Positions 13,217 through 36,388 of a stretch of 42,679 nucleotides of DNA are shown piece by piece. The translations under genes and the position numbers were made by a program. How positions within the stretch are numbered: the stretch's first letter is position 1; each line of letters starts with the position of its first letter. The stretch is from Nanobdellota archaeon (lineage in GTDB: Archaea; Nanobdellota; Nanobdellia; Pacearchaeales; UBA12030): NCBI GenBank assembly GCA_013331945.1, contig DUFK01000014.1:9234-51912 (forward strand), written 5' to 3'. The notes under the pieces are model-generated. The model saw only the letters and a program-made list of their open reading frames with translations, searched no databases and had not been told where the DNA came from.

Positions 13217-14110
13217 TTACTCAGTAACCTTCAGCGTCGCTTCAGAAGTCTCCACATACTTGTACCTCAAGCGGAATCTTATAGGGCTTACATGATCTGA
13301 AGCGCCCTGCATGTTCCTCTTGCACAGGATCGTGCTCCCAACTCTTCCTTCGCCGCTCTTCTCTCCGCTCAATGTAGGCTTGCAATCAAGAGGCTCTTCT
13401 GTCTCTATCGCTGCGAGGATCGCATTCTCTAAGTAAGGCTCTGGGGTTGCGCAGTTTGCAGTTGGCGCATAAACCTTTCCTCTTCCTTTATTCTCAACAA
13501 CGAATTTAATGAGAACATTCTGTCCACTTCTCTCTTCGGTCAAAGAAGTGATCTGCAATGGTCCATCCCCTATTGTTGCACCCTTAAGCTTGCCTTCCTT
13601 ATCTTTCGCTCCTGCACTTAGAGAGCATACCTGCGATCCTTCGAAAGCAAAGCAGATGTCTGCCCTCACATCTGACTCATATACATAGCATGATTTGTAG
13701 GAAATCTTCTGATCGTAATTCACATTCTGTCCCGTATAGCGCGCATTATCAGTGAAGATGATATTCTCCCTTCCGCCAGCAACTCCAGATGCACGAAGGG
13801 CCTTCTTGAGCTCTGCTTTGTTTTGCTTTACCAGTTCAGTCTGCGACAGCGAAAAAAGTTCAGGAAAGAATCCTCCAAGAAATACCTGTGCCTCTCCTGC
13901 CTTTACATCATAACTCCCCTTATTCTCAAGCGTGACCATGAATCTAAAGTCTTGGCCCTTACTTACCTGCGATGGAGGAGCGCCAGAAACCAGTTCAAGA
14001 GCAAGGCCTTCTGTTCCCGAGGCTTGCTGCCCCCCTCTTTTGCATCCGGCTTGCCCGAAGGCAAGCAAGGCGAGTATGAGTGTGAGTGCGAGAATATGTG
14101 TTGTTTTCAT
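13217..14110 (-). CDS. secreted/lipoprotein-like beta-rich protein, paralogue 1
   Basis: 297 aa. Signal peptide MKTTHILALTLILALLAFGQAGC (lipobox-like AGC). Shares its architecture and C-terminal strand pattern with 14140-15060 and with the ectodomain of 15108-16613. Confidence 0.7.
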   Translation of the reverse strand: MKTTHILALTLILALLAFGQAGCKRGGQQASGTEGLALELVSGAPPSQVSKGQDFRFMVTLENKGSYDVKAGEAQVFLGGFFPELFSLSQTELVKQNKAELKKALRASGVAGGRENIIFTDNARYTGQNVNYDQKISYKSCYVYESDVRADICFAFEGSQVCSLSAGAKDKEGKLKGATIGDGPLQITSLTEERSGQNVLIKFVVENKGRGKVYAPTANCATPEPYLENAILAAIETEEPLDCKPTLSGEKSGEGRVGSTILCKRNMQGASDHVSPIRFRLRYKYVETSEATLKVTE

Positions 14111-14139: not shown

Positions 14140-15060
14140 TTAACGTTGTTTATCTTCAGATTCTACGAACAAGGTATGGGTCTTCACCGCTTCTACTGTA
14201 TAATCCAGCTTTATCCTTAACGGATGGGCTATGACTCCTTCAGAATTAATCACCCCCGTACACCTTAAAACCCTTTCGGTCAGCACTTCTAAAGTGCTTC
14301 CATCTGTATCACATTCCAAAGAATATGGCCCAAAACTGACGTCATTGACAAATACTTTATTCACAGCCTCTTCATTGAATCCGGAGACAGCTCCCGGAAG
14401 CAGCAACTTCCCATTCACCTGTTTCTTCAGGTTTATCTTCACAGAAAGTTTCACCTGCCCATCAGAGATGCGGAAAACATTCTTTTCTATGCTGGAAATT
14501 CCAAGAGGTGCTTTTACTTTAGAAGAGATGCTTTCAGAGGTCTTGCAGGAGGTTGTTGTCTGCTTGAGCGGATCTTTCACACATATCACTTGTGAGAAGT
14601 CAGTAGAGTATTGATACAAAATGGAAGTAGAGATTGTAGTTGGCTGACTATCCAATCCCCGATACATAAAAGAACTTCCTTCTGAAGGAAGCGAGATTAT
14701 TTCGCTCCTCGGAACAACCTTGCCTTTGTCTTGAGATGCCGAAGCGATAGAGAAGATTTCGCAATTTTTCCCTATTCCACCGTAAATATCATCTACAGTA
14801 TCTTCAACGCAGAGCTCGCCAGTTGTTGGAATCTCCCCAAAATTCTCTATCTTAGCGATGACCTGGAATTCTGCGTCAGGCTCTATTTTTACAGGCGGCG
14901 CATCTGGAAGCAAAGAGAAATCAAGACCAATCGTACCTGCCTTGCTGTTTGTCCCTCCCCCACCCGGAAAGGTGAAAGGATTTGAAGCACTGCATCCGGC
15001 TTGCCCGAAGGCGAGGAGTGCCAGCAAAAGTGTGAGCGCCAATGCGTGATGTGTTTTCAT
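14140..15060 (-). CDS. secreted/lipoprotein-like beta-rich protein, paralogue 2
   Basis: 306 aa. The signal peptide MKTHHALALTLLLALLAFGQAGC is almost identical to paralogue 1. The 21 nt gcatccggcttgcccgaaggc are identical in both genes. Confidence 0.7.
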   Translation of the reverse strand: MKTHHALALTLLLALLAFGQAGCSASNPFTFPGGGGTNSKAGTIGLDFSLLPDAPPVKIEPDAEFQVIAKIENFGEIPTTGELCVEDTVDDIYGGIGKNCEIFSIASASQDKGKVVPRSEIISLPSEGSSFMYRGLDSQPTTISTSILYQYSTDFSQVICVKDPLKQTTTSCKTSESISSKVKAPLGISSIEKNVFRISDGQVKLSVKINLKKQVNGKLLLPGAVSGFNEEAVNKVFVNDVSFGPYSLECDTDGSTLEVLTERVLRCTGVINSEGVIAHPLRIKLDYTVEAVKTHTLFVESEDKQR

Positions 15061-15107: not shown

Positions 15108-16613
15108 TTATCCTGTGACTTTTTCCCTTTCTGATTCTTCCAGGACAGTGAGCGGAAGCTCATAGACAGATTCAAATTGGAATTCTGCGCTTGCGCGCAC
15201 AACTGATTTCTCCGGTGCCAGCCTTGAGGGATCAAGGCCTCCAATCTGCAATGTGCACTGAATATCTATTGGAACATCTTTTAATCTCAGGATTCTAGTC
15301 GCCGTGTCCAGCTTGCTCGAACTTAGCGAGTAAGAATCAAAGCCCTCATCAAGCTCGCATGGCTGGGTAAATCGCACCGTCTTGCTCTTCGGATCTTCAA
15401 GAGTCAAGCTTTTGATCGATGTGATATTTCCATTAATGTCCTGCTCTCTCAAGACTACAGAGAATGGCCAGCTCCCCTCAAATAATGGCTGGTCATTGTC
15501 GCTTCCGATAGAAACCTTCAGTGGAGATTCATACTTCATCTTGCTCAGAACTGTCCTTCCCCGCAAATTCTCCTGGATGCCAGAGAAAGGATCTTCTTTG
15601 AGCGCGAGTGCATCTTCGTGCATAGTGTAGATGTTCCATTCTGTTTTTGTGACAATATCCCTCAATAAGCGTAATTCAAAATCATGAGATTCGACCTCTT
15701 TCTTTATATCCCCAGTTACTTCTTCTCCAACGGAATTTTCCTGTGAGATTTTCAGTCCTCCCTTTTTCCTGCATATCACAGAAGCTCTCTGCTCGATAGA
15801 ACTTTTTCCGAAGGTGAGAACTCCGCCCCGGATTAATGGAGAGGATAATATCTCCATTTCCTCGTCATCTGCAACACATCGCGGCTCTATGATATACTCC
15901 TCATCAAAAGGATTTGTAACAACGACGGCCGCCTTGACAATCACATCTTCCCCTTCAAAGAACACAGACTTTGATTCTGAAAAATCAACCCGAACCTGCA
16001 CTTCCTCCTTCTTGTTTTCTGTAACGCTTGGCTCGCTCCAGTCGTAGAATGGCTTGAAGAAGCATTCGACAGGATCAAGCATGCAACGCATTCCCTTCTG
16101 AATTCCAATTGTGACCCTGTCAAGATTAAATCCAAGGGGGCCTAGGAAGACCTCAAATGCTCCAGCTCTCCACCAGATGAAGGCAAGGGTTGCGACTAGG
16201 CCGATTCCTATGAAGACTATGACTGTTGTCTGCGTCTCAGGTGCAAGAAGAGAGAAGATAAAACCGAAAGCGGCTCCAGCAATCCCACCGATTATCATCC
16301 CTCCAAGTCCTCCCGAGAAAGAGTATCCGATGAAAGCTCCAACGCCGACAAAGATTCCTGCGAAAGTAATAGTCCTTATCGCTTTTTGAGACTTAGAAGA
16401 AGGCTCTGTGGTTATAATCAGGAACAAAATTCCAAGACCAGCGCCTATCACTAGCCCCATCACAGCGCCAGCAAGAATTCCGAAAACTCCCGAAAATCCG
16501 AAAATCACAATCCCTGTAATTCCGAAAAGGACTGCGAAAATCGCCGCGAATATTATTCCGCCGAATATCGCTGCTCCGAGCAAAGTCCCTTTTAAACTTG
16601 AAGCGTCAGCCAT
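15108..16613 (-). CDS. membrane protein with a Gly-rich multi-TM N-terminal region and a large ectodomain related to the two lipoprotein-like paralogues
   Basis: 501 aa. The first ~165 aa form about 5 TM helices full of small-residue (GxxxG/A-type) spacings. The C-terminal ~330 aa are beta-rich and end ...RASAEFQFESVYELPLTV, compare IRFRLRYKYVETSEATLKV and LRIKLDYTVEAVKTHTLFV. Confidence 0.7.
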   Translation of the reverse strand: MADASSLKGTLLGAAIFGGIIFAAIFAVLFGITGIVIFGFSGVFGILAGAVMGLVIGAGLGILFLIITTEPSSKSQKAIRTITFAGIFVGVGAFIGYSFSGGLGGMIIGGIAGAAFGFIFSLLAPETQTTVIVFIGIGLVATLAFIWWRAGAFEVFLGPLGFNLDRVTIGIQKGMRCMLDPVECFFKPFYDWSEPSVTENKKEEVQVRVDFSESKSVFFEGEDVIVKAAVVVTNPFDEEYIIEPRCVADDEEMEILSSPLIRGGVLTFGKSSIEQRASVICRKKGGLKISQENSVGEEVTGDIKKEVESHDFELRLLRDIVTKTEWNIYTMHEDALALKEDPFSGIQENLRGRTVLSKMKYESPLKVSIGSDNDQPLFEGSWPFSVVLREQDINGNITSIKSLTLEDPKSKTVRFTQPCELDEGFDSYSLSSSKLDTATRILRLKDVPIDIQCTLQIGGLDPSRLAPEKSVVRASAEFQFESVYELPLTVLEESEREKVTG

Positions 16614-16656: not shown

Positions 16657-17103
16657 TCACTCGACCTCTAGCTCGCCTTCCATCCCGGCTTCCTTATGGC
16701 CTTGAACAGAGCAGTAGAAAGTAAATGTCCCTCTTTTATTAGCGATAAATGTGATAGTATCCTTCTCTCCAGGTTCTATAGTGTCTGTCCTTACATTAAA
16801 AGAGGGGATACCAAAGTTATGTGAAATATCTCCATTATTCTTGAACGTTACGATGAGCTTGTCTCCTTTCTCCACAGTTATCCTGTCTGGATCAAAAGAG
16901 AACTCAGTGGCTTCAACAGTCACCCTTATGGTTTCGCCAGTGAAATCTTCATCTGTAGATCTATCTGAAGAAGTATTCAGGAGTCTTTCCCTATCCTCTA
17001 AAGGAAGCGAGATTATATAGATAAGAATGAACACAAGCATGACAATAATCAGGACAGCTACAGGGATTGTCGATTGCCCTCTTTTCACTAATATGTTTCC
17101 CAT
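16657..17103 (-). CDS. cupredoxin-domain protein with class III (type IV pilin-like) signal peptide
   Basis: Trimmed to the ATG at 17101-17103: MGNILVKRG/QSTIPVAVLIIVMLVFILIYII. The C-terminus has type 1 copper ligands: ISHNF ... FTFYCSVQGHKEAGMEGELEV (H, C, H, M). A TATA lies about 30 nt upstream. Confidence 0.75.
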   Translation of the reverse strand: MGNILVKRGQSTIPVAVLIIVMLVFILIYIISLPLEDRERLLNTSSDRSTDEDFTGETIRVTVEATEFSFDPDRITVEKGDKLIVTFKNNGDISHNFGIPSFNVRTDTIEPGEKDTITFIANKRGTFTFYCSVQGHKEAGMEGELEVE

Positions 17104-17131
17104 TATTTCTGGCTTTGAAAGCCCAAATGCA

Positions 17132-17142
17132 TTTATAAATTT
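17132..17142 (-). promoter_or_regulatory. TATA box (minus aaatttataaa) for the cupredoxin-pilin gene
   Basis: Lies 29-39 nt upstream of the ATG at 17103. Confidence 0.5.
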
Positions 17143-17236
17143 TTTTGAGAGCAAAATAAGGCAAAGTATAAAAGTGCCCCCCGCTAGAGTAAGGAAAAGA
17201 GGTCAGAAGGTCTAAAAGGCCAAGAAGGAAGAGTAA

Positions 17237-18115
17237 ATGTTGGGGTGGTTTTTGCTTACAATCGCATTTATCTGGATACTTGGAGCTACAGTTACAGACC
17301 TGAAAAAGAGAGAAGTTCCTGACTGGCTAAGTATTTCCCTTGTTGCCATAGCCCTTGTTGCAAGGATGATTTACTCCCTTCTTGAGAAAGATATCTCCTT
17401 CTTCCTTCAGGGGGCGCTTTTCTTTGCCATTTTCTTTGCACTGGCAAATTTATTCTACTATGCGAGGATCTTTGCGGGAGGAGATGCAAAACTTTTGATG
17501 GGCCTTGGCGCGATTCTTGCAGCTCCGCCAGTGCTTCCTTTCTCCCAAGGCACAAGTGCTGTAATCTCAATTCCTATGCCATTCGTATTCATCCTTAATC
17601 TACTCATCGTGGGGTCTTTGTATGGATTGCTTTTCACTACTGTAGTTGCCATCAAGAACAGGAAAAGATTTTTCCCAGAATTTGTGAAGAAGTGCGGGAA
17701 GGTAAGAATATTCTTCTTGCCGGTAGCGGCTCTTGTTATAGTGGTTGCCATACTCACTATCTTCACAAAAAGTTACTTCCTTCTGCCGTTCGCGGTACTC
17801 GCGCTACTCTTTCCATTCATCCACTCCGCAATAAAAGCCCTCGAGGAAGTCGGGATGGTTTCCCTAGTGCACCCGAAAGATCTCGCTCTCGGAGACTGGC
17901 TCGCTCGAGAAGTGCGTGCAGGAGGAAAAGTGGTAAAGCCAACATGGGAAGGCCTGAGCAAAAAAGAGCTTGAGTTTCTGCAGAGGGCAAAGAAAAAAGT
18001 TCTTGTAAAGTATGGGATTCCATTCGTGCCTGCCTTTTTGCTCACTCTTTTGGCTACAATACTCTTAGGAAATCTCTTTGAATTCCTGATTAGAATAATT
18101 ATGCCCTTCTCCTAA
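17237..18115 (+). CDS. A24-family prepilin/preflagellin peptidase (PibD/FlaK-like)
   Basis: 292 aa, polytopic. First catalytic Asp region is GATVTDLKKREVPDWL; the second is RIFAGGDAKLLMGLG. Confidence 0.85.
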   Translation: MLGWFLLTIAFIWILGATVTDLKKREVPDWLSISLVAIALVARMIYSLLEKDISFFLQGALFFAIFFALANLFYYARIFAGGDAKLLMGLGAILAAPPVLPFSQGTSAVISIPMPFVFILNLLIVGSLYGLLFTTVVAIKNRKRFFPEFVKKCGKVRIFFLPVAALVIVVAILTIFTKSYFLLPFAVLALLFPFIHSAIKALEEVGMVSLVHPKDLALGDWLAREVRAGGKVVKPTWEGLSKKELEFLQRAKKKVLVKYGIPFVPAFLLTLLATILLGNLFEFLIRIIMPFS

Positions 18116-26137: not shown

Positions 26138-26971
26138 TCAGCTATCACGTATAGAGAAGGCAAAATTGAACTTTAGCTCTCCGAATTTATCCACTCCATC
26201 TGTAAAGAACACTTTTCTCTTAGAACTTGCCTCGAAGATAATGAAGTCTCCGTCTTTATTCACGACTACATTAAAACTCTTGAACTTTTCAGAGTCTAAA
26301 GAAGAGATGACGCAGGCGTACACATCCCTCTCTTTTTTACATTGCCCCATAGACTTCTTGCCTTCGCCATAAAGAGAGTAAAATTCAGAGAGGGAGAAAG
26401 GCAACTCCACACTGATTGGAGAATTGCTACTATACTGAAATTTTGGTAAGGAGTATTCCAAGCTTTTTTTAGGGGTTACTGTTAGAACCTCTTCGGAAAG
26501 TTTTATATCGAAGCCACTTTCAGCCTTGCCTGTGACGACTTTTGAGAGAGAAGTTGGGGGGATATAGAGTAAATCATTACTGCTCCAGGTTGTTTCATAC
26601 TTACCTACAGAATCTTTGAGGTACATCTCAAATCTGGATAGGAACTCCGCCTCAAACTCATTTTTTGGAGCAAGGGTACATTTAGAGTCGAACACTCTCC
26701 CATAGATGCCTGAAACAGAACATCTGCCCTCGGTCGGCGGATTTTCCGCGAGTTTGAAAATGGATTGGTCTGAAGCCAAACGTGTTGACTCTTCCAAATA
26801 AAATTGTGCCTCTCGGGCCTCTGATTGGATAGCCAGAAGCGTAAGTGGGCTCAAAACCTCATCGGCAATCTCTCCACGGAAGACAACACCTGCATAGATG
26901 GCGTAGACCGTTACAGCGATGGCTATGATTAGGATTCCGAATGCGAAAGTCGTTCCTTTTTTATTTTCCAT
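26138..26971 (-). CDS. class III signal peptide (pilin-like) protein
   Basis: 277 aa. MENKKG/TTFAFGILIIAIAVTVYAIYAGVVF. Last gene of the minus-strand operon. Confidence 0.7.
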   Translation of the reverse strand: MENKKGTTFAFGILIIAIAVTVYAIYAGVVFRGEIADEVLSPLTLLAIQSEAREAQFYLEESTRLASDQSIFKLAENPPTEGRCSVSGIYGRVFDSKCTLAPKNEFEAEFLSRFEMYLKDSVGKYETTWSSNDLLYIPPTSLSKVVTGKAESGFDIKLSEEVLTVTPKKSLEYSLPKFQYSSNSPISVELPFSLSEFYSLYGEGKKSMGQCKKERDVYACVISSLDSEKFKSFNVVVNKDGDFIIFEASSKRKVFFTDGVDKFGELKFNFAFSIRDS

Positions 26972-26993
26972 TCTCCTGTTCGTAGCTCCCAGA

Positions 26994-28472
26994 CTAGCCC
27001 GCGATCAAGACAATTGCAGATTTTTCTGGAGCTATATCATCTGTTGAGCATTTAAGGTAATTGATAGATGAAAGGATCTTCTTTTCGTTCGGGTCAAAGA
27101 AAGTATTCTCACGATTTATGTTGGCGCTCATTATCGATCTTCCAGTCTTGCCTTTATCCTCCACCTTGTTCCCTAAGCAGCAGACACCGTCTCCGATTAG
27201 GTCTGGGGATATTCCAGCAGAGATTCCACAGCAAACGTTTGGATCATTTGGATTGGTTGATGCAGGATTACATCCAAGCTCTTTTTTCAGCATATTCACG
27301 CTGGGATCACATCCGTCACTCTCGAATAATAGGGAGTTACATCCCGGAGAAAGATAGCTGCAATATTGGTCGCCGAAACCAAAGGAGCTGTGAGAGAATT
27401 CATGGAGCAATGTATCTAGACTAGTTGGGGATTCTGAATCTCCCTGAAAGATGGGGAAGATGAGATTAAATTTATCCGGCTCATACCCTAGTGCATCCAG
27501 TTTCTTACGGACAAATCCAGCCCATTCCAGCTCCCCAAGATTGTATTCCTCGAATGCAAAGAGAGAACTGCTAGGATCATCATTTCCTTGAAAAGCTGTG
27601 CTGAAATCGTTTTTAGTGAAGACATTTACATTACCGATCTTGGAATAGACTTTGCTTCTGCAATCCTTTAAAGGGAGATTATCGATAAAGAAGTCAACTA
27701 TCTTCTTCCCCTCTTTATTTGCAGCGTCTTGAGATTCCCATTCGCCAGCAGGCACTAATAAAAGTTCTATCTTGTACTTTTTCTCGGCGGGAGAAAGAGT
27801 GGAGCCTTCCCTGCCTTGCAAAGGTTCCGATGCCCCACTCAAGGTCTGCGAATTGGAGCCAGTATCGGAGAAGCTTTTTACATTGCACATAGTATTGCAT
27901 TCTTCAAAACTTTTTTCTTCCAGGCAGGAATTGTATGATTCCTTGAAGCTAAATTTAAATTTTGGATGTTGTATTACGGAGACTCGGGGCGTGAGGGGCG
28001 GTGATCCAGTTGGTGTCAAAATAGATTGCCGAGAGGGATTGCCGCTTTGTGGCTGCTCAACCCAGTTGTAGTTTATTTCACTCCCATCTGGAAATTCTAC
28101 CTTGAATGCATAGCATTCTCCATAAGTCCTCTCGAGTGCTTCATTTACTCTATCTTTAATGAGCTCTTCAGGCACATCAGCCTCGACTTTTGCTTTATAA
28201 ATCGAAAAAAACTCAGCGAAAGTCATCACTGTTTTTGGCGAATGATCCACTTCTAATTTAAGGGAGGTTTTCAATAACGATTCTGCTGGAGAGCTGTCTT
28301 CAAAGCTGAGGGCACTTTTAGTCTCGAATTCTTTCTTCAGGAAGAATGGAAAGAAGATATGCGTGACTACCAGAAATGCAAATATAATTCCTGCCAAAAA
28401 GAAGATGGCTAGCATCGTTGCGAATGCCGAGCCCATTATCCCTCGTTTTTCCGATTTCATATTTGATTTCAT
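26994..28472 (-). CDS. pilin-like N-terminus fused to a putative zinc metallopeptidase domain
   Basis: 492 aa. MKSNMKSEKRG/IMGSAFATMLAIFFLAGIIFAFLVV. The LLHEFSHSSFGFGDQYC motif (HExxH at 27390-27404) resembles HEFGHSFGGLADEY-type zincins. The C-terminus is Cys-rich (CCGISAG...GVCCLGN). Confidence 0.65.
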   Translation of the reverse strand: MKSNMKSEKRGIMGSAFATMLAIFFLAGIIFAFLVVTHIFFPFFLKKEFETKSALSFEDSSPAESLLKTSLKLEVDHSPKTVMTFAEFFSIYKAKVEADVPEELIKDRVNEALERTYGECYAFKVEFPDGSEINYNWVEQPQSGNPSRQSILTPTGSPPLTPRVSVIQHPKFKFSFKESYNSCLEEKSFEECNTMCNVKSFSDTGSNSQTLSGASEPLQGREGSTLSPAEKKYKIELLLVPAGEWESQDAANKEGKKIVDFFIDNLPLKDCRSKVYSKIGNVNVFTKNDFSTAFQGNDDPSSSLFAFEEYNLGELEWAGFVRKKLDALGYEPDKFNLIFPIFQGDSESPTSLDTLLHEFSHSSFGFGDQYCSYLSPGCNSLLFESDGCDPSVNMLKKELGCNPASTNPNDPNVCCGISAGISPDLIGDGVCCLGNKVEDKGKTGRSIMSANINRENTFFDPNEKKILSSINYLKCSTDDIAPEKSAIVLIAG

Positions 28473-28942
28473 CTTTTTTTGACTAATATTTCGATATCTA
28501 AAGTTCCTGGATGTACTGTGCCTTCGAGATTAACTGCCACATATTTCCTAGACTTACTGCAGTAAGGAGCATTTTTCTCCTCATTGAACACACAAAGTGG
28601 CTCCAAGTAATCAAATTCATCTGTCTTAGCCACAATACTTGCATCCAGGACAGTTAAATTAAGTTTAGCTCCGACTGCATCTGATGAGAGGCATTTTTCA
28701 AGTTCTTTCGAGTCGATTTTGGCGAAATCTATAACTCCAACATCCTCGTAAAAACAGGTTCCTGCTCTTTGGGAGAAAATGGCTGCTTCTATGGGAGTTA
28801 CGTCTATAGCAGAAACTAGGATAGCGATAAAAAAGGAGACTGCAAGAGCTAAGGGCAAAAGAAGAAAAAGTAGCCTGGGAATCCATAGCATACCTTCTGC
28901 TACATCCCCTTTTTTATCATTAAGCAGGTTTTTGTTTAACAT
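28469..28942 (-). CDS. possible pilin-like protein
   Basis: 157 aa. MLNKNLLNDKKG/DVAEGMLWIPRLLFLLLPLALAVSFFIAILV. Overlaps both neighbours (4 nt and 23 nt). Confidence 0.55.
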   Translation of the reverse strand: MLNKNLLNDKKGDVAEGMLWIPRLLFLLLPLALAVSFFIAILVSAIDVTPIEAAIFSQRAGTCFYEDVGVIDFAKIDSKELEKCLSSDAVGAKLNLTVLDASIVAKTDEFDYLEPLCVFNEEKNAPYCSKSRKYVAVNLEGTVHPGTLDIEILVKKR

Positions 28943-29327
28943 TTATTTCCAGTGTATTTTCAGTAGATTTTTTGGTGATCTCTTTATTCTCGTTCAGGAC
29001 TATTTTGTAAGATGTGGCTGATAAGAGTTTTGATTTTTTGATCTCCAGCTTTTTCTCTTTTTCATTTACCACTATATCGAAATTTTCTCCTTCGACTAGG
29101 GCCTTGTTCAGATTAAATGCGACGGCAGCGTCTGGATCGGAATTAAAGGCTGCGTCCAGCCATAATGCCTGCGATTTTGAGGCGAGGTTTAGTTGGAGTT
29201 TTTCTCCGTGGAGAGAGGAGTAGATAAAATATAAAAGGGAAGCACCGATGATCGCAACTATAATCAGCTTGATTATCTCATTATACAGCAATCCCATAAC
29301 TCCTCTTTTATCTTTCATCAGTCCCAT
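28920..29327 (-). CDS. class III signal peptide (pilin-like) protein
   Basis: Trimmed to the ATG at 29325-29327, 1 nt after the upstream stop: MGLMKDKRG/VMGLLYNEIIKLIIVAIIGASLLYFIY. Confidence 0.65.
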   Translation of the reverse strand: MGLMKDKRGVMGLLYNEIIKLIIVAIIGASLLYFIYSSLHGEKLQLNLASKSQALWLDAAFNSDPDAAVAFNLNKALVEGENFDIVVNEKEKKLEIKKSKLLSATSYKIVLNENKEITKKSTENTLEINVKQKPA

Positions 29328-29328
29328 T

Positions 29329-30417
29329 TTATGCTGCCCCCCCAGTTTCACCGGTTTCTTCATCTGCATAGTATTTCTTCCACTGCTGGTAGAAGCTCAA
29401 AATTCTTGATTGATAATCGCAGGTTGTTCCCGATTTCCCAGTATTATAGACGCAGAAGATGCACTTCCATTTTCCTTCCTCATCTCTGAAATTTCCAACG
29501 CAGGAGGCATAAGACCCTTCAGCCCTTCCTGAAGCCTGCTCATATGCGCTTCTGAGCGTTTTTGCGGTGCACTTCAACTGCCCTTCATCACTGAATACAT
29601 TGTCTCCAGAACACTTGCATCCTCGCTTGCAAGAAGTGGGCCATCCGCATCCGGTGAGAGCACTTTTTCCGACAGAAGTGCATTTATTGTTTGTTCCCAT
29701 CCCGCTCTCGAGTGATGCGAATGATGCGATAAGTGCAGGATCAATTCCTTTCTGAGAGGCATAATCTTCAGCGAGCTCTTTCCTCGTCTTATCAGATTTG
29801 AATGCCTTGCTTTCGTACGCCTTGACAAAGTTGGAGCTTGGAAGTTCTGTGCCTGCAGATACTCCCGGGCCAACTACAGGTGAAGTTCCTCCAAGACCTG
29901 CATCTCCATCTACATCATCAATATCCGTTCCAGCCTTTCCTGCTTTTTTATCTCCGCTTATCAGAACATAACTCGCATCCTGTGACAAGTAGACATCATA
30001 AGGCCCCTCACCGAACTCAACCTTGTTCTTGTTCCCTTCTGAATCCTGTATTTTTACATCCTTGAATACTATTTTGCAATATCCCTCTTGCTCGCAATCA
30101 GTGCTTCCGAACCATCCATTCTTGCAAAGGCATAGGCAAGAAGCTCCGGAGCAGGAATCAGGGCTTGCTCCCTTATCAGCTCCTTTATCAAAGCCTTTTA
30201 TTGTCCACCCGCTTCCGACGTAAAGGACAAAAAAGCTTGGCTGCTCCCCTGTTTTGAGTTTCTGTATCTCTGTGATGAGTGTGTTGAAGTATTCCTTCGT
30301 AACTCTTCCCTCTGTTTTAGATAGGTAGCTGGCAGTAGCGAGAATTATGAGTGCAATGAGCATCAGCAGCAGAATTATTTCAATAAAATTCTTCCTCAGC
30401 ACACCCTTTTTTTCCAT
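29329..30417 (-). CDS. pilin-like N-terminus fused to a lytic-transglycosylase (SLT)-like, Cys-rich domain
   Basis: 362 aa. MEKKG/VLRKNFIEIILLLMLIALIILATASY. The C-terminal part, GIDPALIASFASLESGMGTNN...GKSALTGCGW, resembles the SLT catalytic E-S motif region (Glu codon at 29707-29709). Confidence 0.6.
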   Translation of the reverse strand: MEKKGVLRKNFIEIILLLMLIALIILATASYLSKTEGRVTKEYFNTLITEIQKLKTGEQPSFFVLYVGSGWTIKGFDKGADKGASPDSCSGASCLCLCKNGWFGSTDCEQEGYCKIVFKDVKIQDSEGNKNKVEFGEGPYDVYLSQDASYVLISGDKKAGKAGTDIDDVDGDAGLGGTSPVVGPGVSAGTELPSSNFVKAYESKAFKSDKTRKELAEDYASQKGIDPALIASFASLESGMGTNNKCTSVGKSALTGCGWPTSCKRGCKCSGDNVFSDEGQLKCTAKTLRSAYEQASGRAEGSYASCVGNFRDEEGKWKCIFCVYNTGKSGTTCDYQSRILSFYQQWKKYYADEETGETGGAA

Positions 30418-30479
30418 TAAAGATAGAAGGAGAATTATTTTTTAAAGGTTGTTAAGAGGGGAAAAGAAAAAGGAAGAGA

Positions 30480-30674
30480 TTAAGGCAGGTTCTTCAGGCC
30501 CTCTCCGGCCCCAGATTTCGCAAGCCCGAGCATCTCGCCGATCTTTCCGAAGATCTCCCGGAAAGTTCCTGTAGTGAAGAGGAGAACGATAACAAGGATA
30601 ATCAGAATGATGATTATAGTGACAATCGTATTGGTTGGGAGGGATGTGCCTCTTTTGGCTTGTTTAGAAGGCAT
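30480..30674 (-). CDS. mini pilin-like protein (64 aa)
   Basis: MPSKQAKRG/TSLPTNTIVTIIIILIILVIVLLF. The ATG lies 1 nt after the upstream stop. Confidence 0.65.
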   Translation of the reverse strand: MPSKQAKRGTSLPTNTIVTIIIILIILVIVLLFTTGTFREIFGKIGEMLGLAKSGAGEGLKNLP

Positions 30675-30675
30675 T

Positions 30676-31023
30676 TTATTCTGGAATTATTTTTGGAGTT
30701 TCTCCAGTGCATTCTATGAATTGGCATTTCACCCCAAGGCCAGGGCAGTTAAATCCGCCTTCCTTACCCGTTATCTTTATCTCTTTGCAGAATGCGATTC
30801 CAGATCTGGTCTGACATAAGCTCTCACACTGGGCTTTCACTACATCCTCGCTCGCAGTGCCAGGCCTGTAGAATATCTCCTTGATCTTCCCTACAAGCTG
30901 TGCCATTCCGCCTGCAAAAAATGCGGCTGAAATGACAAGAACTAGCAAGGCGATGATTACGATGATTATGGTATTTGTAGAAATCTCTACTCCTCTTTTA
31001 TCGTTTAGCGGTCTTAGCTTCAT
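30676..31023 (-). CDS. class III signal peptide (pilin-like) protein with Cys-rich head
   Basis: 115 aa. MKLRPLNDKRG/VEISTNTIIIVIIALLVLVISAAFF. Has 6 Cys in the C-terminal 60 aa. Confidence 0.7.
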   Translation of the reverse strand: MKLRPLNDKRGVEISTNTIIIVIIALLVLVISAAFFAGGMAQLVGKIKEIFYRPGTASEDVVKAQCESLCQTRSGIAFCKEIKITGKEGGFNCPGLGVKCQFIECTGETPKIIPE

Positions 31024-31036
31024 CTTCCTCTTTTCT

Positions 31037-31249
31037 TTAAGATTCTAAACCCTGGCTGTTTTTAAAACTTTTCATTAGGGGAATTACCAAAGCGCCCGGT
31101 GCTGCTGGTGGTACAGGTGGCTCTCCCCCGAATACGCCGAATACTGGCTTGAGCAAAAAGGTGTAGAGTGCCCAACCGACAATCAAGAGAACCGTGATTA
31201 TCAAAATCCACTTCACAATTATCCCAGCTCCTCCTGATTCTTCTGACAT
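31037..31249 (-). CDS. small single-TM protein
   Basis: 70 aa, MSEESGGAGIIVKWILIITVLLIVGWALYTF... No K/R-G motif, so it is not clearly a pilin. Confidence 0.5.
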   Translation of the reverse strand: MSEESGGAGIIVKWILIITVLLIVGWALYTFLLKPVFGVFGGEPPVPPAAPGALVIPLMKSFKNSQGLES

Positions 31250-31284
31250 TTTCTTTTTCCTTTATCTCTTTTCTCTATACCTTT

Positions 31285-31443
31285 CTAACGCCCAAATCTC
31301 AAGATATCAAATATCCGGTCTATAAAACCTACTCCTTTTCCTTTGAGAAAGAACAAGATGAGGAATAAGACTACAAGAACCAAGAGAGCAAGAATCCACA
31401 TCGCTGTACTGCTCTCCACAAATCCTTTTTTATTTTTTGCCAT
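31285..31443 (-). CDS. mini pilin-like protein (52 aa)
   Basis: Not in the track. Hand translation: MAKNKKG/FVESSTAMWILALLVLVVLFLILFFLKGKGVGFIDRIFDILRFGR. Confidence 0.55.
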   Translation of the reverse strand: MAKNKKGFVESSTAMWILALLVLVVLFLILFFLKGKGVGFIDRIFDILRFGR

Positions 31444-31508
31444 GGTTTTGTAGCTCCTTTTTCTTCCTTGGTGCTTTCTTTGGTGGAGCTTTCTTTTTAA
31501 GAAAGGTC

Positions 31509-32417
31509 CTATGGAAGGCTCTCAAGAGAACCGCACAATTCCCCCAAGGTTTGGGCATTATATGTGGTTAAGATAACTTGGGAGCATCCGGCTTCATTAC
31601 CATTACAATACCCTGCGGCAAATACTTGATCTGTCTCTGCATTATATGCCTGATAGCCTATCACCCCTAAAAGAGATACAAGAGTTACTATTGCCCCCGC
31701 AGGGGTTTTCATTATAGATCCAATCGCCCCACCAACTGCCTTTCCACCAGGTACTTTACTGCCTAAAAAGAAAGTTCCGCCTACAGCGCCAACATCTTTT
31801 GCTAATAGATTCCACGCATCCTGAGATTCAAACCTAAAGAAGACGACGGCATAGTCTTGATCTGTTCTGATGGGTGAGATTTGAAATCCAGATGAGATAT
31901 CTGCTCCCTCCTGATCTGTGAAGTATTCTAAGTAAGTAATCTTTTTTTGGGGGATTTTTGTTTCCTTAAGATAACTTCCGAGAGAGATTGTTTTTGGGGA
32001 TTTTTGTATAGCGCCGCTGAATTTTATTGTGGAGCATATCAAACAAGAGGATTTCGCATTCGAAAGTCCAAAACTTTCACCTGTATCAAGAAAGTCGACC
32101 TTTCCTCTTCCAAGCATATCCCAACAATCATACATCGCATTCGCAACTGTTTTTTTAATCTCTTCTTCGTTCGTCGTTTTAACTCCTATCGGTTGGGTCT
32201 TGCACTGCAACTCTGGCTTTACATCATCTGGAAGCTGGTTTATTCCCCACAATCCCCTCTTCACGACAGATTCCTTGCATGCTTCCTTATCCAGTATTGC
32301 TGGAGTCTTGGCATAGAGCTGATAGATGAATACTCCGAATACAAGAAGTCCTGCAAGGCCAATCGTCCAGAGGACTACCTCATGATGTTCTTGCCCTCTT
32401 TTTTTTCTTTCTTGCAT
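31509..32417 (-). CDS. class III signal peptide (pilin-like) protein
   Basis: 302 aa. MQERKKRG/QEHHEVVLWTIGLAGLLVFGVFIY. Has a second hydrophobic stretch near the C-terminus. Confidence 0.6.
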   Translation of the reverse strand: MQERKKRGQEHHEVVLWTIGLAGLLVFGVFIYQLYAKTPAILDKEACKESVVKRGLWGINQLPDDVKPELQCKTQPIGVKTTNEEEIKKTVANAMYDCWDMLGRGKVDFLDTGESFGLSNAKSSCLICSTIKFSGAIQKSPKTISLGSYLKETKIPQKKITYLEYFTDQEGADISSGFQISPIRTDQDYAVVFFRFESQDAWNLLAKDVGAVGGTFFLGSKVPGGKAVGGAIGSIMKTPAGAIVTLVSLLGVIGYQAYNAETDQVFAAGYCNGNEAGCSQVILTTYNAQTLGELCGSLESLP

Positions 32418-33263: not shown

Positions 33264-35411
33264 CTAAGTCCCTATAGGTCCGATCTGATTCATTACAAGA
33301 GATGCGAGCAGACTTAAAACTACTATGGTGATGAATGCTACAATAAGGTAGAAGAACATCCCGCGATAAAGGGCCTTGGATATCTCATTCTTCTCAGTGA
33401 GCTTGTCGCTTCCGTTCTCTATCACAACTACAGTAGCACTCAGGATGAAGATTATCTGTATCAGATACAAGCCGATGGCGATCTGCAAGAAATAAGGCGG
33501 AATCATCTTCTCTATCTCAAATAATGTGACTATTCCCGCGGCTCCGCCGAGTCCCTCTGCTCCTCCCGATTCAAGTCCAGTCAGGAGCGTGGAAAGCTGA
33601 TTGATGATGAGAGTTATCATCACTGCAAGCCCTACAACAATCCCTCCGAGAACAGGTGCCAAAAAGGAGACATTGCTTTTCATGCTCACAACGACATCTG
33701 CGACAAGGTCTTTCAGCCTCTCTTCTATTTTGTGGATATTCTTTGCATGCTCTGAAATGCTCATAACGCTTTCAGAAGCAATCTTAAGACTTTTCTTGAC
33801 TCCTTCAACAAGTATGAACATCGAGGTCTTGATGAGTGAGGATGGGTAGAAAGTGATTGCCCCTCTTTGCCTTCCGAAGATCGCTTCCTGCACACTGGCG
33901 CCATTCTGGATATTATTGTTGACCATCATGAAGAATCTTCCTGTCGGAGTTCCACGCAGGACTTCTGCAACCCTTCCGAATGCCATTTCTGCTGGCACTC
34001 CTGCGGCAAGCCTATTCCCGAGCTGGAAGAGTGCAGAGCTGAATTCATCTTCCAGTTTCTTAGTTTCTTGTCTTGTCTTTATGAGGTTCTTGGTGCGCAT
34101 TCCGTAATTCACCGCAAAGAAAAGGCCAAGTGAAAGCGGAATAAATAGGCTAAGAAGAGTGGCGCCAACTCCAAATGGCCCAATCTGCTTTCCGCCAACA
34201 TCCTTGAAATCAAAAAAGCTTCCGATGAATGGAAGAGTGAAATCGTGCAGGCCTATCGCAGAAGAGAGTGCAGGGGAGAGCATCAGCAAGGGCAGGATTC
34301 CTAGCACAAAGAAAGGGAGTGCGATGAAGAAGGCAATCCATGTCGGCGTAGAACTCTTGTATTCTGCATATCTCGGATGTGCCTCCAAAAGTTCTGGCTC
34401 TCCATATCCTGTAGGTCTTGAAAGCAAGATCTGCGATGTAAGATAATAAACAAAGAATGGAATTATCACATTAAACATTATAATCACATGCTGCCAGGTC
34501 ATCAATCCACCAAGAAGTGCAGAGGCAAGGGGAAGCAGGGCAAGAGCCAGCGTAGGAAGCACAATCCCGAGCATGTACACATTTGTCAGAGGCGCCTTGA
34601 TGGAATGAGAGTAAGTGAGCATCTTTTCCTGCACTCCTTCGAGCATCACAGAAAGGCTTTTCTCTAAGGTTGCAACTCTCTTGCTTTCTACCGGCTCGTA
34701 GAGCGAGGATTCAATTAGGTGCATCGCCTCTGCGAATTCCAGATTCGATTCGCGCCATCTTTCAAGATAAGCATCAATGCTATCTCTCACTGTCGGATAT
34801 TTTCCTACTTCAACATCCCAGAATATCTTCTTGAAATCCAAAGAGAGGGGAGCTTGCAGATGCTCAGAGGTAAATTTTACAGCTCTCTCTAAATTCGGGG
34901 TGTGCTTCATATAGATTACGATGAAAAGCAATGCCTGAATCAGCTGCGATGAGGCCTTGAGCTGCCACTTCTTTGCCTCCATCATCGGAAAAGTGTAGAG
35001 CCAGTAATACAAGAATGCAGAGAAAGCGATTCCAAGCACAAGATACATGAAAGCGAAAGTTCCAGTGAAAACGTAAAAGGCAGCGAATGCAAAAACACTC
35101 AGCACAAGAGCGAGAATGAACATGTTGATGGCAAGGCTTGCTGCCTCTTCTGGCTTTAATTCAGAATGGATCGTTTCCAGGGCTTTTCGGAACTTTGCCG
35201 CATCTTTGGCAGATGGCTTTACCTTGATGATGGAGCCACTTATTTTTGCAGCCTTCTCGTAGCGGCTTAGGGGCTTGAATGCCTCTTGCTTGAACTGCAC
35301 ATACTCCTGAGTGAAGTTGACTCTATCTGGATTCCCGGGATCGTAGTCAAGCCCGCGCTCAAGCTCCCGCTCATACTTCTTAAGAATATCATCCACTCTC
35401 CGTGATGCCAC
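33264..35411 (-). CDS. type IV pilus/archaellum platform protein (FlaJ/TadC/PilC-like polytopic membrane protein)
   Basis: 715 aa with many TM helices and two cytoplasmic helical domains. Located near the FlaI-like ATPase. GTG start at 35409-35411; there is no nearby in-frame ATG. Confidence 0.7.
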   Translation of the reverse strand: MASRRVDDILKKYERELERGLDYDPGNPDRVNFTQEYVQFKQEAFKPLSRYEKAAKISGSIIKVKPSAKDAAKFRKALETIHSELKPEEAASLAINMFILALVLSVFAFAAFYVFTGTFAFMYLVLGIAFSAFLYYWLYTFPMMEAKKWQLKASSQLIQALLFIVIYMKHTPNLERAVKFTSEHLQAPLSLDFKKIFWDVEVGKYPTVRDSIDAYLERWRESNLEFAEAMHLIESSLYEPVESKRVATLEKSLSVMLEGVQEKMLTYSHSIKAPLTNVYMLGIVLPTLALALLPLASALLGGLMTWQHVIIMFNVIIPFFVYYLTSQILLSRPTGYGEPELLEAHPRYAEYKSSTPTWIAFFIALPFFVLGILPLLMLSPALSSAIGLHDFTLPFIGSFFDFKDVGGKQIGPFGVGATLLSLFIPLSLGLFFAVNYGMRTKNLIKTRQETKKLEDEFSSALFQLGNRLAAGVPAEMAFGRVAEVLRGTPTGRFFMMVNNNIQNGASVQEAIFGRQRGAITFYPSSLIKTSMFILVEGVKKSLKIASESVMSISEHAKNIHKIEERLKDLVADVVVSMKSNVSFLAPVLGGIVVGLAVMITLIINQLSTLLTGLESGGAEGLGGAAGIVTLFEIEKMIPPYFLQIAIGLYLIQIIFILSATVVVIENGSDKLTEKNEISKALYRGMFFYLIVAFITIVVLSLLASLVMNQIGPIGT

Positions 35412-35422
35412 TTTCTTTTGCT

Positions 35423-35443
35423 GAAGCTTTTTCTAAAAGCTTC
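35423..35443. repeat. 9-bp perfect hairpin gaagctttt/tct/aaaagcttc in the platform-gene 5' region
   Basis: Differs by one loop base from plus 2271-2291 (gaagctttt/ttt/aaaagcttc), which is the core of the canonical tRNA-Pro intron. Confidence 0.85.
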
Positions 35444-35534
35444 CCTCTTTTAGTTATGGAAAGAAAACGAATACGGATTTTAAATCCTTTTGTGCCGAGA
35501 AAAAATATATAAACGTATAGCCTCTAAAGAAATA

Positions 35535-35948
35535 ATGGGACTTTTCGGGTTTGGAAAAAAGAAGGAAGCGGAGAACGCGAAGAAAGGAAAAGCGGTGGCA
35601 GATGATCGTGCCAGAACGGATGCTTATGATGAGATACAGGCTATTCTAGGCCGGATAGAAAAGACCTTTGATGGGAAGGCAAAACATGTCTTAAATGTGG
35701 CTGCATCCCGTGGGGCAGGGACAAAAACTTATACTGAAAGAGAAATCATAAAATTAAGAGCACCATTACTAGATGCGCGACATGCTCAACAACGAGGAGT
35801 CTTTCGCAATATTTTACCCAACCTCCTTAAGTTTTCTGAGCTATTGAGTAAGAGCGAATACTTTATGTCAGACGGAACCTTCTTGAGGGATATCGGGAGG
35901 GATATAACTGCCATAGAGCAGAGCCTTAAGAAAGGGAAGTATATCTGA
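35535..35948 (+). CDS. hypothetical helical protein, N-terminus MGLFGFGKKKE (orphan family)
   Basis: 137 aa from the ATG at 35535. A TATA (aatatataaa) lies about 25 nt upstream. The track ORF's upstream extension starts at a non-ATG codon. Confidence 0.6.
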   Translation: MGLFGFGKKKEAENAKKGKAVADDRARTDAYDEIQAILGRIEKTFDGKAKHVLNVAASRGAGTKTYTEREIIKLRAPLLDARHAQQRGVFRNILPNLLKFSELLSKSEYFMSDGTFLRDIGRDITAIEQSLKKGKYI

Positions 35949-35979
35949 TTTTAAATCCTTTCCTCTCGCGCTACTCAGA

Positions 35980-35991
35980 AAGGTATAAATA
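35980..35991 (+). promoter_or_regulatory. BRE/TATA element aaggtataaata
   Basis: Ends 23 nt upstream of the ATG at 36014. Confidence 0.55.
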
Positions 35992-36013
35992 GACTATTTG
36001 CTCAAAATCAAAT

Positions 36014-36376
36014 ATGGCAATTGAGCTAGGCGAGATTATAAATGTAGAGGCTAAGCTGAGCAGAGAGATCAATAAAATCAGGGAGCTGCAACGTCATGAG
36101 ATTTATGGACGGGTCCAAAAGCATAAAGAACAAATAAGCATTTTGATTAGAGTTCTCTCCAATGCATTAAATGATCTAGGGGACTGTAGAAAGGCTATTC
36201 AGAAACAAAACTATGCTAAAGGATTAAAAGACGTGCAGAAGGCAACTAACAATCTTATAGAATGCAGTAAATTCAGTTTTATTTTAGGCTTAGTTGGGAC
36301 TAACATTAGATACTTCACAAGAGAATGCGCACGCATACAGGTGTCTTTGGAAAATACTATAAGAACAGCCAGGTAA
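36014..36376 (+). CDS. hypothetical helical protein
   Basis: 120 aa, all-helical appearance, AT-rich. Its 3' end converges on the ATPase gene, 12 nt away. Confidence 0.55.
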   Translation: MAIELGEIINVEAKLSREINKIRELQRHEIYGRVQKHKEQISILIRVLSNALNDLGDCRKAIQKQNYAKGLKDVQKATNNLIECSKFSFILGLVGTNIRYFTRECARIQVSLENTIRTAR

Positions 36377-36388
36377 TTTATCAAAAAA

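Follow-up and report, generated by a model that had tools for sequence, protein, structure and literature searches.

A cupredoxin on a predicted class III signal-type anchor beside an A24 peptidase gene in a Nanobdellota archaeon

Introduction

Archaeal class III signals are not confined to pilins. On non-pilin cargo they are established for the sugar-binding proteins of Sulfolobus (PMC3387779; PMC13705601), and they were recently reported to be widespread on substrate-binding proteins (PMC13705601). According to the rules for archaeal signal peptidase III (SPIII), the residue at -2 of the cleavage site has to be basic, and emphasis is also placed on -1 and +1 (PMC3387779). EppA, the peptidase that processes the Epd pilins of Methanococcus maripaludis, has a form with nine transmembrane (TM) helices (PMC4858521). 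Here, we describe a gene of a Nanobdellota archaeon, located at 16657–17103 on the minus strand of a stretch of 42,679 nucleotides (contig DUFK01000014.1; the whole stretch is called the window in the following). It encodes a cupredoxin of 148 amino acids (aa) plus stop, whose N-terminus resembles a class III signal and which is divergent from a gene for an A24 prepilin peptidase.

Small type-1 copper proteins at the outer face of membranes are known with other anchors. Sulfocyanin is anchored by an N-terminal TM helix, and auracyanin and lipid-modified azurin are anchored proteins as well. Halocyanins are substrates of the twin-arginine translocation pathway that carry lipid anchors and are processed by signal peptidase I or II (PMC3387779). 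A first-pass annotation of the window, made from its letters, had proposed a blue-copper domain on a pilin-like signal, processed by the neighbouring peptidase and either displayed on a pilus or anchored like one.

The source genome comprises 0.92 Mb in 49 contigs and is about 82% complete; the window is contig 44. Archaeal traits within the window include RadA with an intein, RPA and promoters composed of a transcription factor B recognition element (BRE) and a TATA box. The nearest named relatives are metagenome-assembled genomes (MAGs) labelled "Nanoarchaeota archaeon", which belong to the DPANN archaea.

Results

The C-terminal part of the protein (aa 58–148; 16660–16932, minus strand) is identified as a cupredoxin domain by Pfam, AlphaFold2 (AF2), Foldseek and phmmer. 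The Pfam models Cupredoxin_1 (PF13473; 5e-14, 52.6 bits) and Copper-bind (PF00127; 7.5e-11, 42.8 bits) both match above cut-off. The AF2 model, with a predicted local distance difference test (pLDDT) of 76, folds residues 58–147 into a seven-stranded Greek-key beta-sandwich, for which the copper-bound Cupredoxin_1 protein 4hcf (E 4e-9) and nitrosocyanin are the top Foldseek matches; these two and auracyanin are matched with probability 1.00. In the phmmer search against the PDB, the nitrite reductase of Hyphomicrobium (2dv6, 6tfd) is matched in its N-terminal cupredoxin domain, against which H95 (16821–16819) and the loop C131-x4-H136-x4-M141 (16713–16711, 16698–16696 and 16683–16681; all on the minus strand) are aligned. 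ISHNF is placed against AQHDV of 2dv6, and YCSVQGHKEAGMEG against YCSIAGHRQAGMEG. The aligned His, Cys, His and Met of these structures are their type-1 copper ligands. The full ligand set claimed by the first-pass annotation is borne out by this alignment, after which H95, C131, H136 and M141 are all present. Copper binding itself is predicted from the complete set.

A domain of this kind could handle copper and not electrons, either by sequestering or chaperoning it for copper tolerance in the manner of CopI and CupA, or as a ferroxidase of the EfeO/FtrB type, and the anchor would then provide membrane retention only. Partial matches of CopI models (2e-9, below cut-off) and the presence of CupA, EfeO and FtrB cupredoxins in the Foldseek list fit this idea, as do the lack of detected respiratory partners and the one P-type ATPase in the genome. 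The ligands and the loop spacing, however, are those of a classical type-1 electron-transfer site, with a pattern identical to that of the NirK N-terminal domain. The protein has neither CopI-like tracts rich in Met and His nor a CupA-like Cys pair, and the P-type ATPase is untyped and unlinked to the cupredoxin locus. We therefore consider a role in copper handling rather unlikely.

The part of the protein that is conserved best is not the copper domain but the N-terminal module in front of it. The predicted class III leader, MGNILVKRG (aa 1–9; 17077–17103, minus strand), is followed by a predicted cut between G9 (17079–17077) and Q10 (17076–17074). The module behind the cut (16975–17076, minus strand) consists of QSTIP, a hydrophobic helix (aa 13–32) and a juxtamembrane segment SLPxEDRERLLN (aa 32–43). 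AF2 places helices at aa 13–32 and 35–45, and the Kyte–Doolittle hydrophobicity reaches 3.34 over aa 15–33. Residues V15, A16, V17, L18, I19, M22, L23, F25, I28, Y29, S32, L33, P34, R38, L41 and L42 are invariant. Features of class III substrates that are seen here are K or R at -2, G or A at -1 and a hydrophobic helix of about 20 residues after the site. Of 12 relatives, 11 keep [KR][GA]|Q without exception, although their basic leaders of 5–13 residues drift in both length and sequence (MSQKRG, MERRG, MIKRGLLSKG, MQKRGLLAKKG, MKKGVRNIIGSKG and ..MIAKKA are examples). The twelfth relative, P0010, was called from a later Met and lacks its N-terminus; its genomic open reading frame (ORF) reads MEKRG|Q.

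The same motif marks the pilin-like proteins of the genome. Directly before an N-terminal TM helix, [KR][GA]Q occurs in 10 of the 154 such proteins, against 0.8 expected, which is an enrichment of about 12-fold, and the nine motif proteins other than the cupredoxin are all pilin-like. One of these pilins, MKRG|QVAIEY..., shares the tetrapeptide KRG|Q with the cupredoxin and matches the Pfam model Class_IIIsignal with 28.8 bits at a cut-off of 23.7. The likeness that the first-pass annotation saw to the pilin-like genes, namely K/R-G followed by a hydrophobic helix, is confirmed for the row at 26138–32417. Its class III signal prediction holds for the motif and the invariant site; a Pfam Class_IIIsignal match is obtained for the genome pilin and not for the cupredoxin. 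A cleavable Sec signal was rejected, as an AxA-type site is missing and the hydrophobic stretch is as long as a TM helix. In a six-frame search of the genome, the hidden Markov model (HMM) of the N-terminal module has a single other match, a Cys-rich surface protein of 523 aa with KRA|Q (G000:C9:364-1936, plus strand; E 1.8e-4).

From these data we lean towards a cupredoxin that would be processed by a prepilin peptidase and kept tethered by its helix, in the manner of the Sulfolobus bindosome. An ordinary type II signal-anchored cupredoxin, with an uncleaved TM helix and with KRGQ and the neighbouring peptidase as incidental features, is possible but on the unlikely side. Nearly all other small cupredoxins of this kind do use plain TM anchors or lipoboxes, the class III and pilin HMMs do not match the N-terminus, and the basic N-terminus would satisfy the positive-inside rule with topology and function unchanged if no cleavage occurred. 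A plain anchor accounts neither for the unchanging [KR][GA]Q of 11 relatives with otherwise drifting leaders, nor for a motif that is shared with the pilin-like proteins of the genome and enriched about 12-fold before N-terminal TM helices. Moreover, relatives that are plainly anchored have leaders of 3–6 residues without [KR][GA]Q.

The position of the leader depends on the start codon. The ORF (16657–17154, minus strand) has 165 aa counted from TTG 17154. Within its 5' part lies a BRE-like run of seven A (17146–17140) followed by the TATA box TTTATAAA (17139–17132), together 17132–17146 on the minus strand. The window shares the coding-strand sequence AAAAAAATTTATAAAT (17146–17131) letter for letter with the related loci L001, L004 and L005 as well as with L021, while the promoter of L026 has the core AAATTTATAAAT after a shorter A run. 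Because this conserved promoter sits downstream of TTG 17154, we assign the start to ATG 17103, with MGNILVKRGQSTIPVAVLIIVMLVFILIYII as the first residues. The starts of the orthologues agree with it, which upholds the start codon and upstream TATA box of the first-pass annotation. The alternative that the upstream TTG is the true start was rejected, since it precedes a BRE/TATA identical in three related loci, and the apparent conservation of KKFINA in the TTG extension is merely the BRE/TATA translated as protein. The distance from TATA box to ATG is 28 nucleotides (nt) in the window, 21 nt in two loci and 35 nt in a third. Such spacings agree with leaderless or near-leaderless archaeal mRNAs, and the cupredoxin mRNA is predicted to be near-leaderless.

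The enzyme that would process the leader is encoded next door. The divergent gene (17237–18115, plus strand) encodes an aspartyl peptidase of the A24 prepilin/preflagellin type with 292 aa and about 8–9 predicted TM helices (Pfam Peptidase_A24, 8e-13). Its best NCBIfam match is FlaK, below cut-off. Alignment to FlaK (3s0x) shows that both catalytic Asp are kept, D21 (17297–17299) and the Asp of GGD83 (17483–17485). It is the sole A24 match in the 82%-complete genome. A TATA-like element, AAAGTATAAAAG (17164–17175, plus strand), can be read upstream of the gene and would act as its promoter; the reverse complement of the element is conserved in L004. The promoters of the peptidase and the cupredoxin would thus stand back to back, about 25 nt apart. 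The peptidase is longer than FlaK and PibD and contains a soluble insert of about 50 residues (aa ~205–255).

The gene order HIT, A24, cupredoxin is kept in all five related loci for which the upstream flank was recovered. Because the whole neighbourhood is syntenic, housekeeping genes included, adjacency of the peptidase alone is weak evidence, and this synteny counts in favour of a plain anchor as well. For the first-pass assignment of the divergent peptidase as the processing enzyme, adjacency, uniqueness in the genome and both catalytic Asp were found; cleavage of the cupredoxin by it is the reading that we favour.

Between the module and the copper domain lies a variable linker (aa 44–57; 16933–16974, minus strand), which is acidic, rich in Ser and Thr and predicted to be disordered. 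In the AF2 model, built from 10 sequences, the low-confidence stretch between helix and domain covers aa 43–57, with pLDDT below 50 at aa 43–49 and a mean of 45 at aa 41–50. Since this linker is predicted to be disordered, we prefer a tether to packing as in a pilin. Of the first-pass proposal "displayed on, or anchored like, a pilus", pilin-type anchoring is the best reading, and display on a pilus is disfavoured by the disordered linker of about 14 residues and by the location of the gene outside the pilus operon.

The filament genes themselves are in the same window. A type IV filament ATPase is encoded at 36389–38635, and beside it lies a 715-aa ORF (33264–35411), a putative platform gene for which no Pfam or NCBIfam match was found. 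The row of pilin-like genes with [KR]G and a hydrophobic helix at their N-termini (26138–32417) is about 9 kb away from the cupredoxin gene, which belongs to a separate operon with envelope proteins. The cupredoxin might be a true minor or tip pilin subunit in a filament of the ATPase/platform system (33264–38635), which would place copper centres on the pilus and might allow electrons to be exchanged outside the cell with a partner cell or a mineral. As far as cleavage goes, this overlaps with the tethered protein that we favour. The class III-like signal, a strongly conserved helix of the kind that packs into filament cores, and the type IV filament ATPase and pilin-like cluster in the window are compatible with it, and cargo proteins of SPIII have been proposed to enter filaments (PMC13705601). 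However, the pilus operon does not include the gene, which is grouped with envelope genes, and the disordered linker parts helix and domain in a way that is unlike pilins. A filament with a single, flexibly tethered cupredoxin on each subunit offers no obvious conductive path, and no redox chain was found that would feed the copper centre. In sister genera, moreover, the copper site is decayed or the domain is absent while the helix module is kept. The protein is probably not a structural pilin, and we judge a filament subunit decidedly unlikely.

The first-pass annotation had suggested looking for the same fusion in related genomes, and it was found there, confined to one family of "Nanoarchaeota" MAGs. 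Anchored cupredoxins occur in 40 of the 151 genomes of the order that were surveyed, and the N-terminal module is seen only in the family of the window, in all 5 of its 5 genomes. Across 185,579 species genomes that were scanned, the fusion turned up in 2 other MAGs only. Among the best 150 of 10,798 profile matches in a library of 1.84 billion proteins, a class III-type N-terminus appears in 3 clusters only. The other anchored cupredoxins, of the order and elsewhere, nearly all carry plain N-terminal TM anchors or lipoboxes. Some small anchored cupredoxins from other DPANN and CPR genomes, namely MAGs of Woesearchaeota, Pacearchaeota and Parcubacteria (L047, L059, L064, L045), have a CuA-type loop, C-x3-C-x3-H-x2-M, even though each is a small protein on its own, held by a plain anchor or a lipobox.

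Within the family, the fusion is present in three genera, and in two (G024, G004) the module is a stand-alone gene (L021:1501-1690 and L026:1480-1665, both on the minus strand). These genes of 60–62 aa consist of no more than leader, KA|Q site, conserved helix and LPPxxRxRLLN motif, and read MIKRGIKARKA|QAPAAGTAAVAVLIIVMLVF...SLPPSERARLLN.. and MRFVKEVKA|QGGTIAVAVLIMVMLVF...LPPDQRARLLN..., respectively. Both have an identical or near-identical BRE/TATA and lie directly upstream of the gene for the Gly-zipper protein described below. Because the two copies differ at many synonymous positions, the stand-alone module appears to be under purifying selection. Candidate roles for it are those of a mini-pilin and of a small subunit in the membrane. 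In both genomes, a geranylgeranyl-reductase-like gene for a flavin adenine dinucleotide protein is inserted between the module and the A24 gene.

In a tree of the cupredoxin domains, the class III cupredoxins form one clade (100/100) that is nested among lipoprotein-type and plain-anchored ones, with a ligand-less subclade on a long branch. The fusion has a single origin and is restricted to one family. From distribution and tree we therefore regard the helix module, which is more conserved than the cupredoxin domain, as the part that stays constant, whereas the copper domain is an optional cargo that was gained once. The copper site varies among the relatives. The axial Met is replaced by Glu in P0005–P0008 and in G012, and P0009, P0010, P0016 and G018 no longer have His95, His136 and Met141. 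The loop of P0005–P0008 (L012/L043) reads GHRxAGEFGELEV, with an axial Glu, an unusual ligand, while His, Cys and His are retained.

The cupredoxin gene is the first of a same-strand row that we describe as an envelope operon. The second gene (15108–16613, minus strand) starts 43 nt downstream, with no TATA box in the gap, and encodes an envelope protein of 501 aa. It is composed of Gly-zipper helices at aa 11–185 (about 170 residues with GxxxG repeats) and tandem beta-sandwich ectodomains at aa 206–491, for which the AF2 model gives generic Ig/FN3-like matches only. In every related locus, the gene comes after the cupredoxin or N-module gene. The 501-aa protein is lineage-specific, with six homologues among 5.8 billion proteins, and has four invariant Cys in the beta-sandwich part. 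An FTR1/EfeU-like permease or a redox partner was considered for it and rejected, given the lack of family matches and the Gly-zipper and Ig/FN3-like model. The third gene (14140–15060, minus strand) encodes a lipobox protein of 306 aa (LLAFGQAGC), with equivalents of 290 aa in L001 and L002. The fourth (13217–14110, minus strand) encodes its paralogue, a lipobox protein of 297 aa with a weak CARDB match.

A DoxX-family membrane protein is a tentative candidate for a partner of the cupredoxin. Of 27 loci with anchored cupredoxins from the remaining families of the order, 6 have DoxX as a neighbour. In G018, where the class III cupredoxin is ligand-less, a separate lipoprotein with a type-1 copper cupredoxin is encoded directly upstream of DoxX, and it is 44% identical to the cupredoxin domain of the window. 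G000 (the genome of the window) and G012 have an intact or near-intact copper site and DoxX and lack a lipoprotein copy. In G024 and G004, a type-1 copper cupredoxin is missing, and DoxX is broken or was not found. Within the family, it is suggestive that an intact type-1 copper site, as judged from its ligands, tracks with an intact DoxX.

The gene rows around DoxX in G018 and G000 show a reciprocal pattern. In G018, a Cys-less, His-rich cupredoxin-like lipoprotein, the type-1 copper cupredoxin lipoprotein and DoxX stand in a row (L041:448-2016, G018:C83). In G000, the Cys-less, His-rich cupredoxin-like lipoprotein (HWPASDVHPTH ... HDH) is followed by a gap of 494 nt, DoxX and a thioredoxin-reductase-like gene, so labelled by sequence resemblance only (L042:225-2824, G000:C46). 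The gap is at the position of the type-1 copper lipoprotein of G018 and holds only a 143-aa ORF on the opposite strand.

Discussion

We propose the following mechanism. The type-1 cupredoxin would be exported with its N-terminus inside and its C-terminus outside. The neighbouring A24 peptidase would then cut, most likely after Gly9, so that Gln10 becomes the new N-terminus. The mature protein would remain at the external face of the membrane, anchored through its hydrophobic, pilin-type helix, and the copper domain would swing on its short flexible linker. There is probably a partner in the membrane to which the helix module docks, and the Gly-zipper protein of 501 aa from the same operon is the obvious candidate. 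The copper centre may serve as a tethered one-electron carrier or as an oxidant at the cell surface.

Several observations weigh against this proposal. The N-terminus of the cupredoxin has no match to Class_IIIsignal (PF04021, DUF361) at E <= 1, and no pilin Pfam model matches it. Four polar residues (QSTI) follow the cut, so that the hydrophobic core begins at +4/+5 only. A positive-inside signal anchor yields the identical topology without cleavage. The conserved synteny block around the peptidase also takes in unrelated housekeeping genes. Copper function seems dispensable in the lineage, as judged from close relatives with Glu, with lost ligands or with no domain. There is no obvious electron chain for the cupredoxin in this incomplete genome: COX1, cytochrome bd and complex I were not found in the 82% that is covered, and their absence is therefore unproven. 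The link to DoxX is based on five incomplete genomes. We nevertheless regard processing and retention by the helix as the best account of the invariant cleavage motif.

In the literature, we found no precedent for a cupredoxin combined with a class III signal or with a pilin, nor one for a blue copper protein in DPANN archaea. The cupredoxin on a class III-type signal is a case for which no published example was found, and it is lineage-narrow. If cleavage is confirmed, the list of cargo on archaeal prepilin-type anchors widens from solute-binding proteins to a redox metalloprotein, and the finding adds to the view of the class III signal as a general device for surface display in DPANN archaea. 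The locus is also a handy small system, since it combines a substrate of 148 aa, an adjacent peptidase gene, natural variants of the copper site (intact, Met to Glu, decayed) and natural helix-only forms. It raises the puzzle why a surface blue-copper protein is kept by an organism without a detectable respiratory chain. A further, highly improbable possibility is that the helix module of 50 residues is a minimal pilin which polymerises or docks on the type IV filament, carries blue-copper cargo in some genera and exchanges electrons with a host cell or a mineral. If true, these respiration-less episymbiotic archaea would possess, in a copper-decorated appendage, an equivalent of conductive pili that is based on a cupredoxin.

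The closest known system is the bindosome of Sulfolobus and Saccharolobus. Like GlcS, AraS and TreS, the protein described here combines a non-pilin ectodomain with a short basic leader, a PibD-type site and a retained helix, and its gene is located away from the filament machinery. It differs from them in its redox copper cargo, in the lack of an adjacent ABC transporter, in its DPANN lineage and in the invariant Gln at +1; its processing is a prediction. The [KR]G|Q motif with Gln at +1 is shared with the Epd pilins of Methanococcus maripaludis that are processed by EppA. The peptidase of the window, with its extra length compared to FlaK and PibD and its 8–9 predicted TM helices, recalls the 9-TM form of EppA, although its best NCBIfam match is FlaK, below cut-off. 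Unlike the Epd pilins, the cupredoxin N-terminus fails PF04021 and has neither E at +5 nor the Y/F-L pattern.

The predicted arrangement, a small type-1 copper domain that an N-terminal anchor and a linker attach to the outside of the cytoplasmic membrane, is shared with halocyanin, sulfocyanin, auracyanin and lipid-modified azurin. These proteins serve known respiratory or photosynthetic chains, whereas none was found in this 82%-complete genome, and the predicted mode of anchoring sets the protein of the window apart from all four. The fold and the C-x4-H-x4-M loop are common to 4hcf of Bacillus anthracis and to the three-domain nitrite reductase 2dv6/6tfd. In those structures the cupredoxin is a soluble protein or an enzyme domain, while here it forms the entire ectodomain on a pilin-type anchor.

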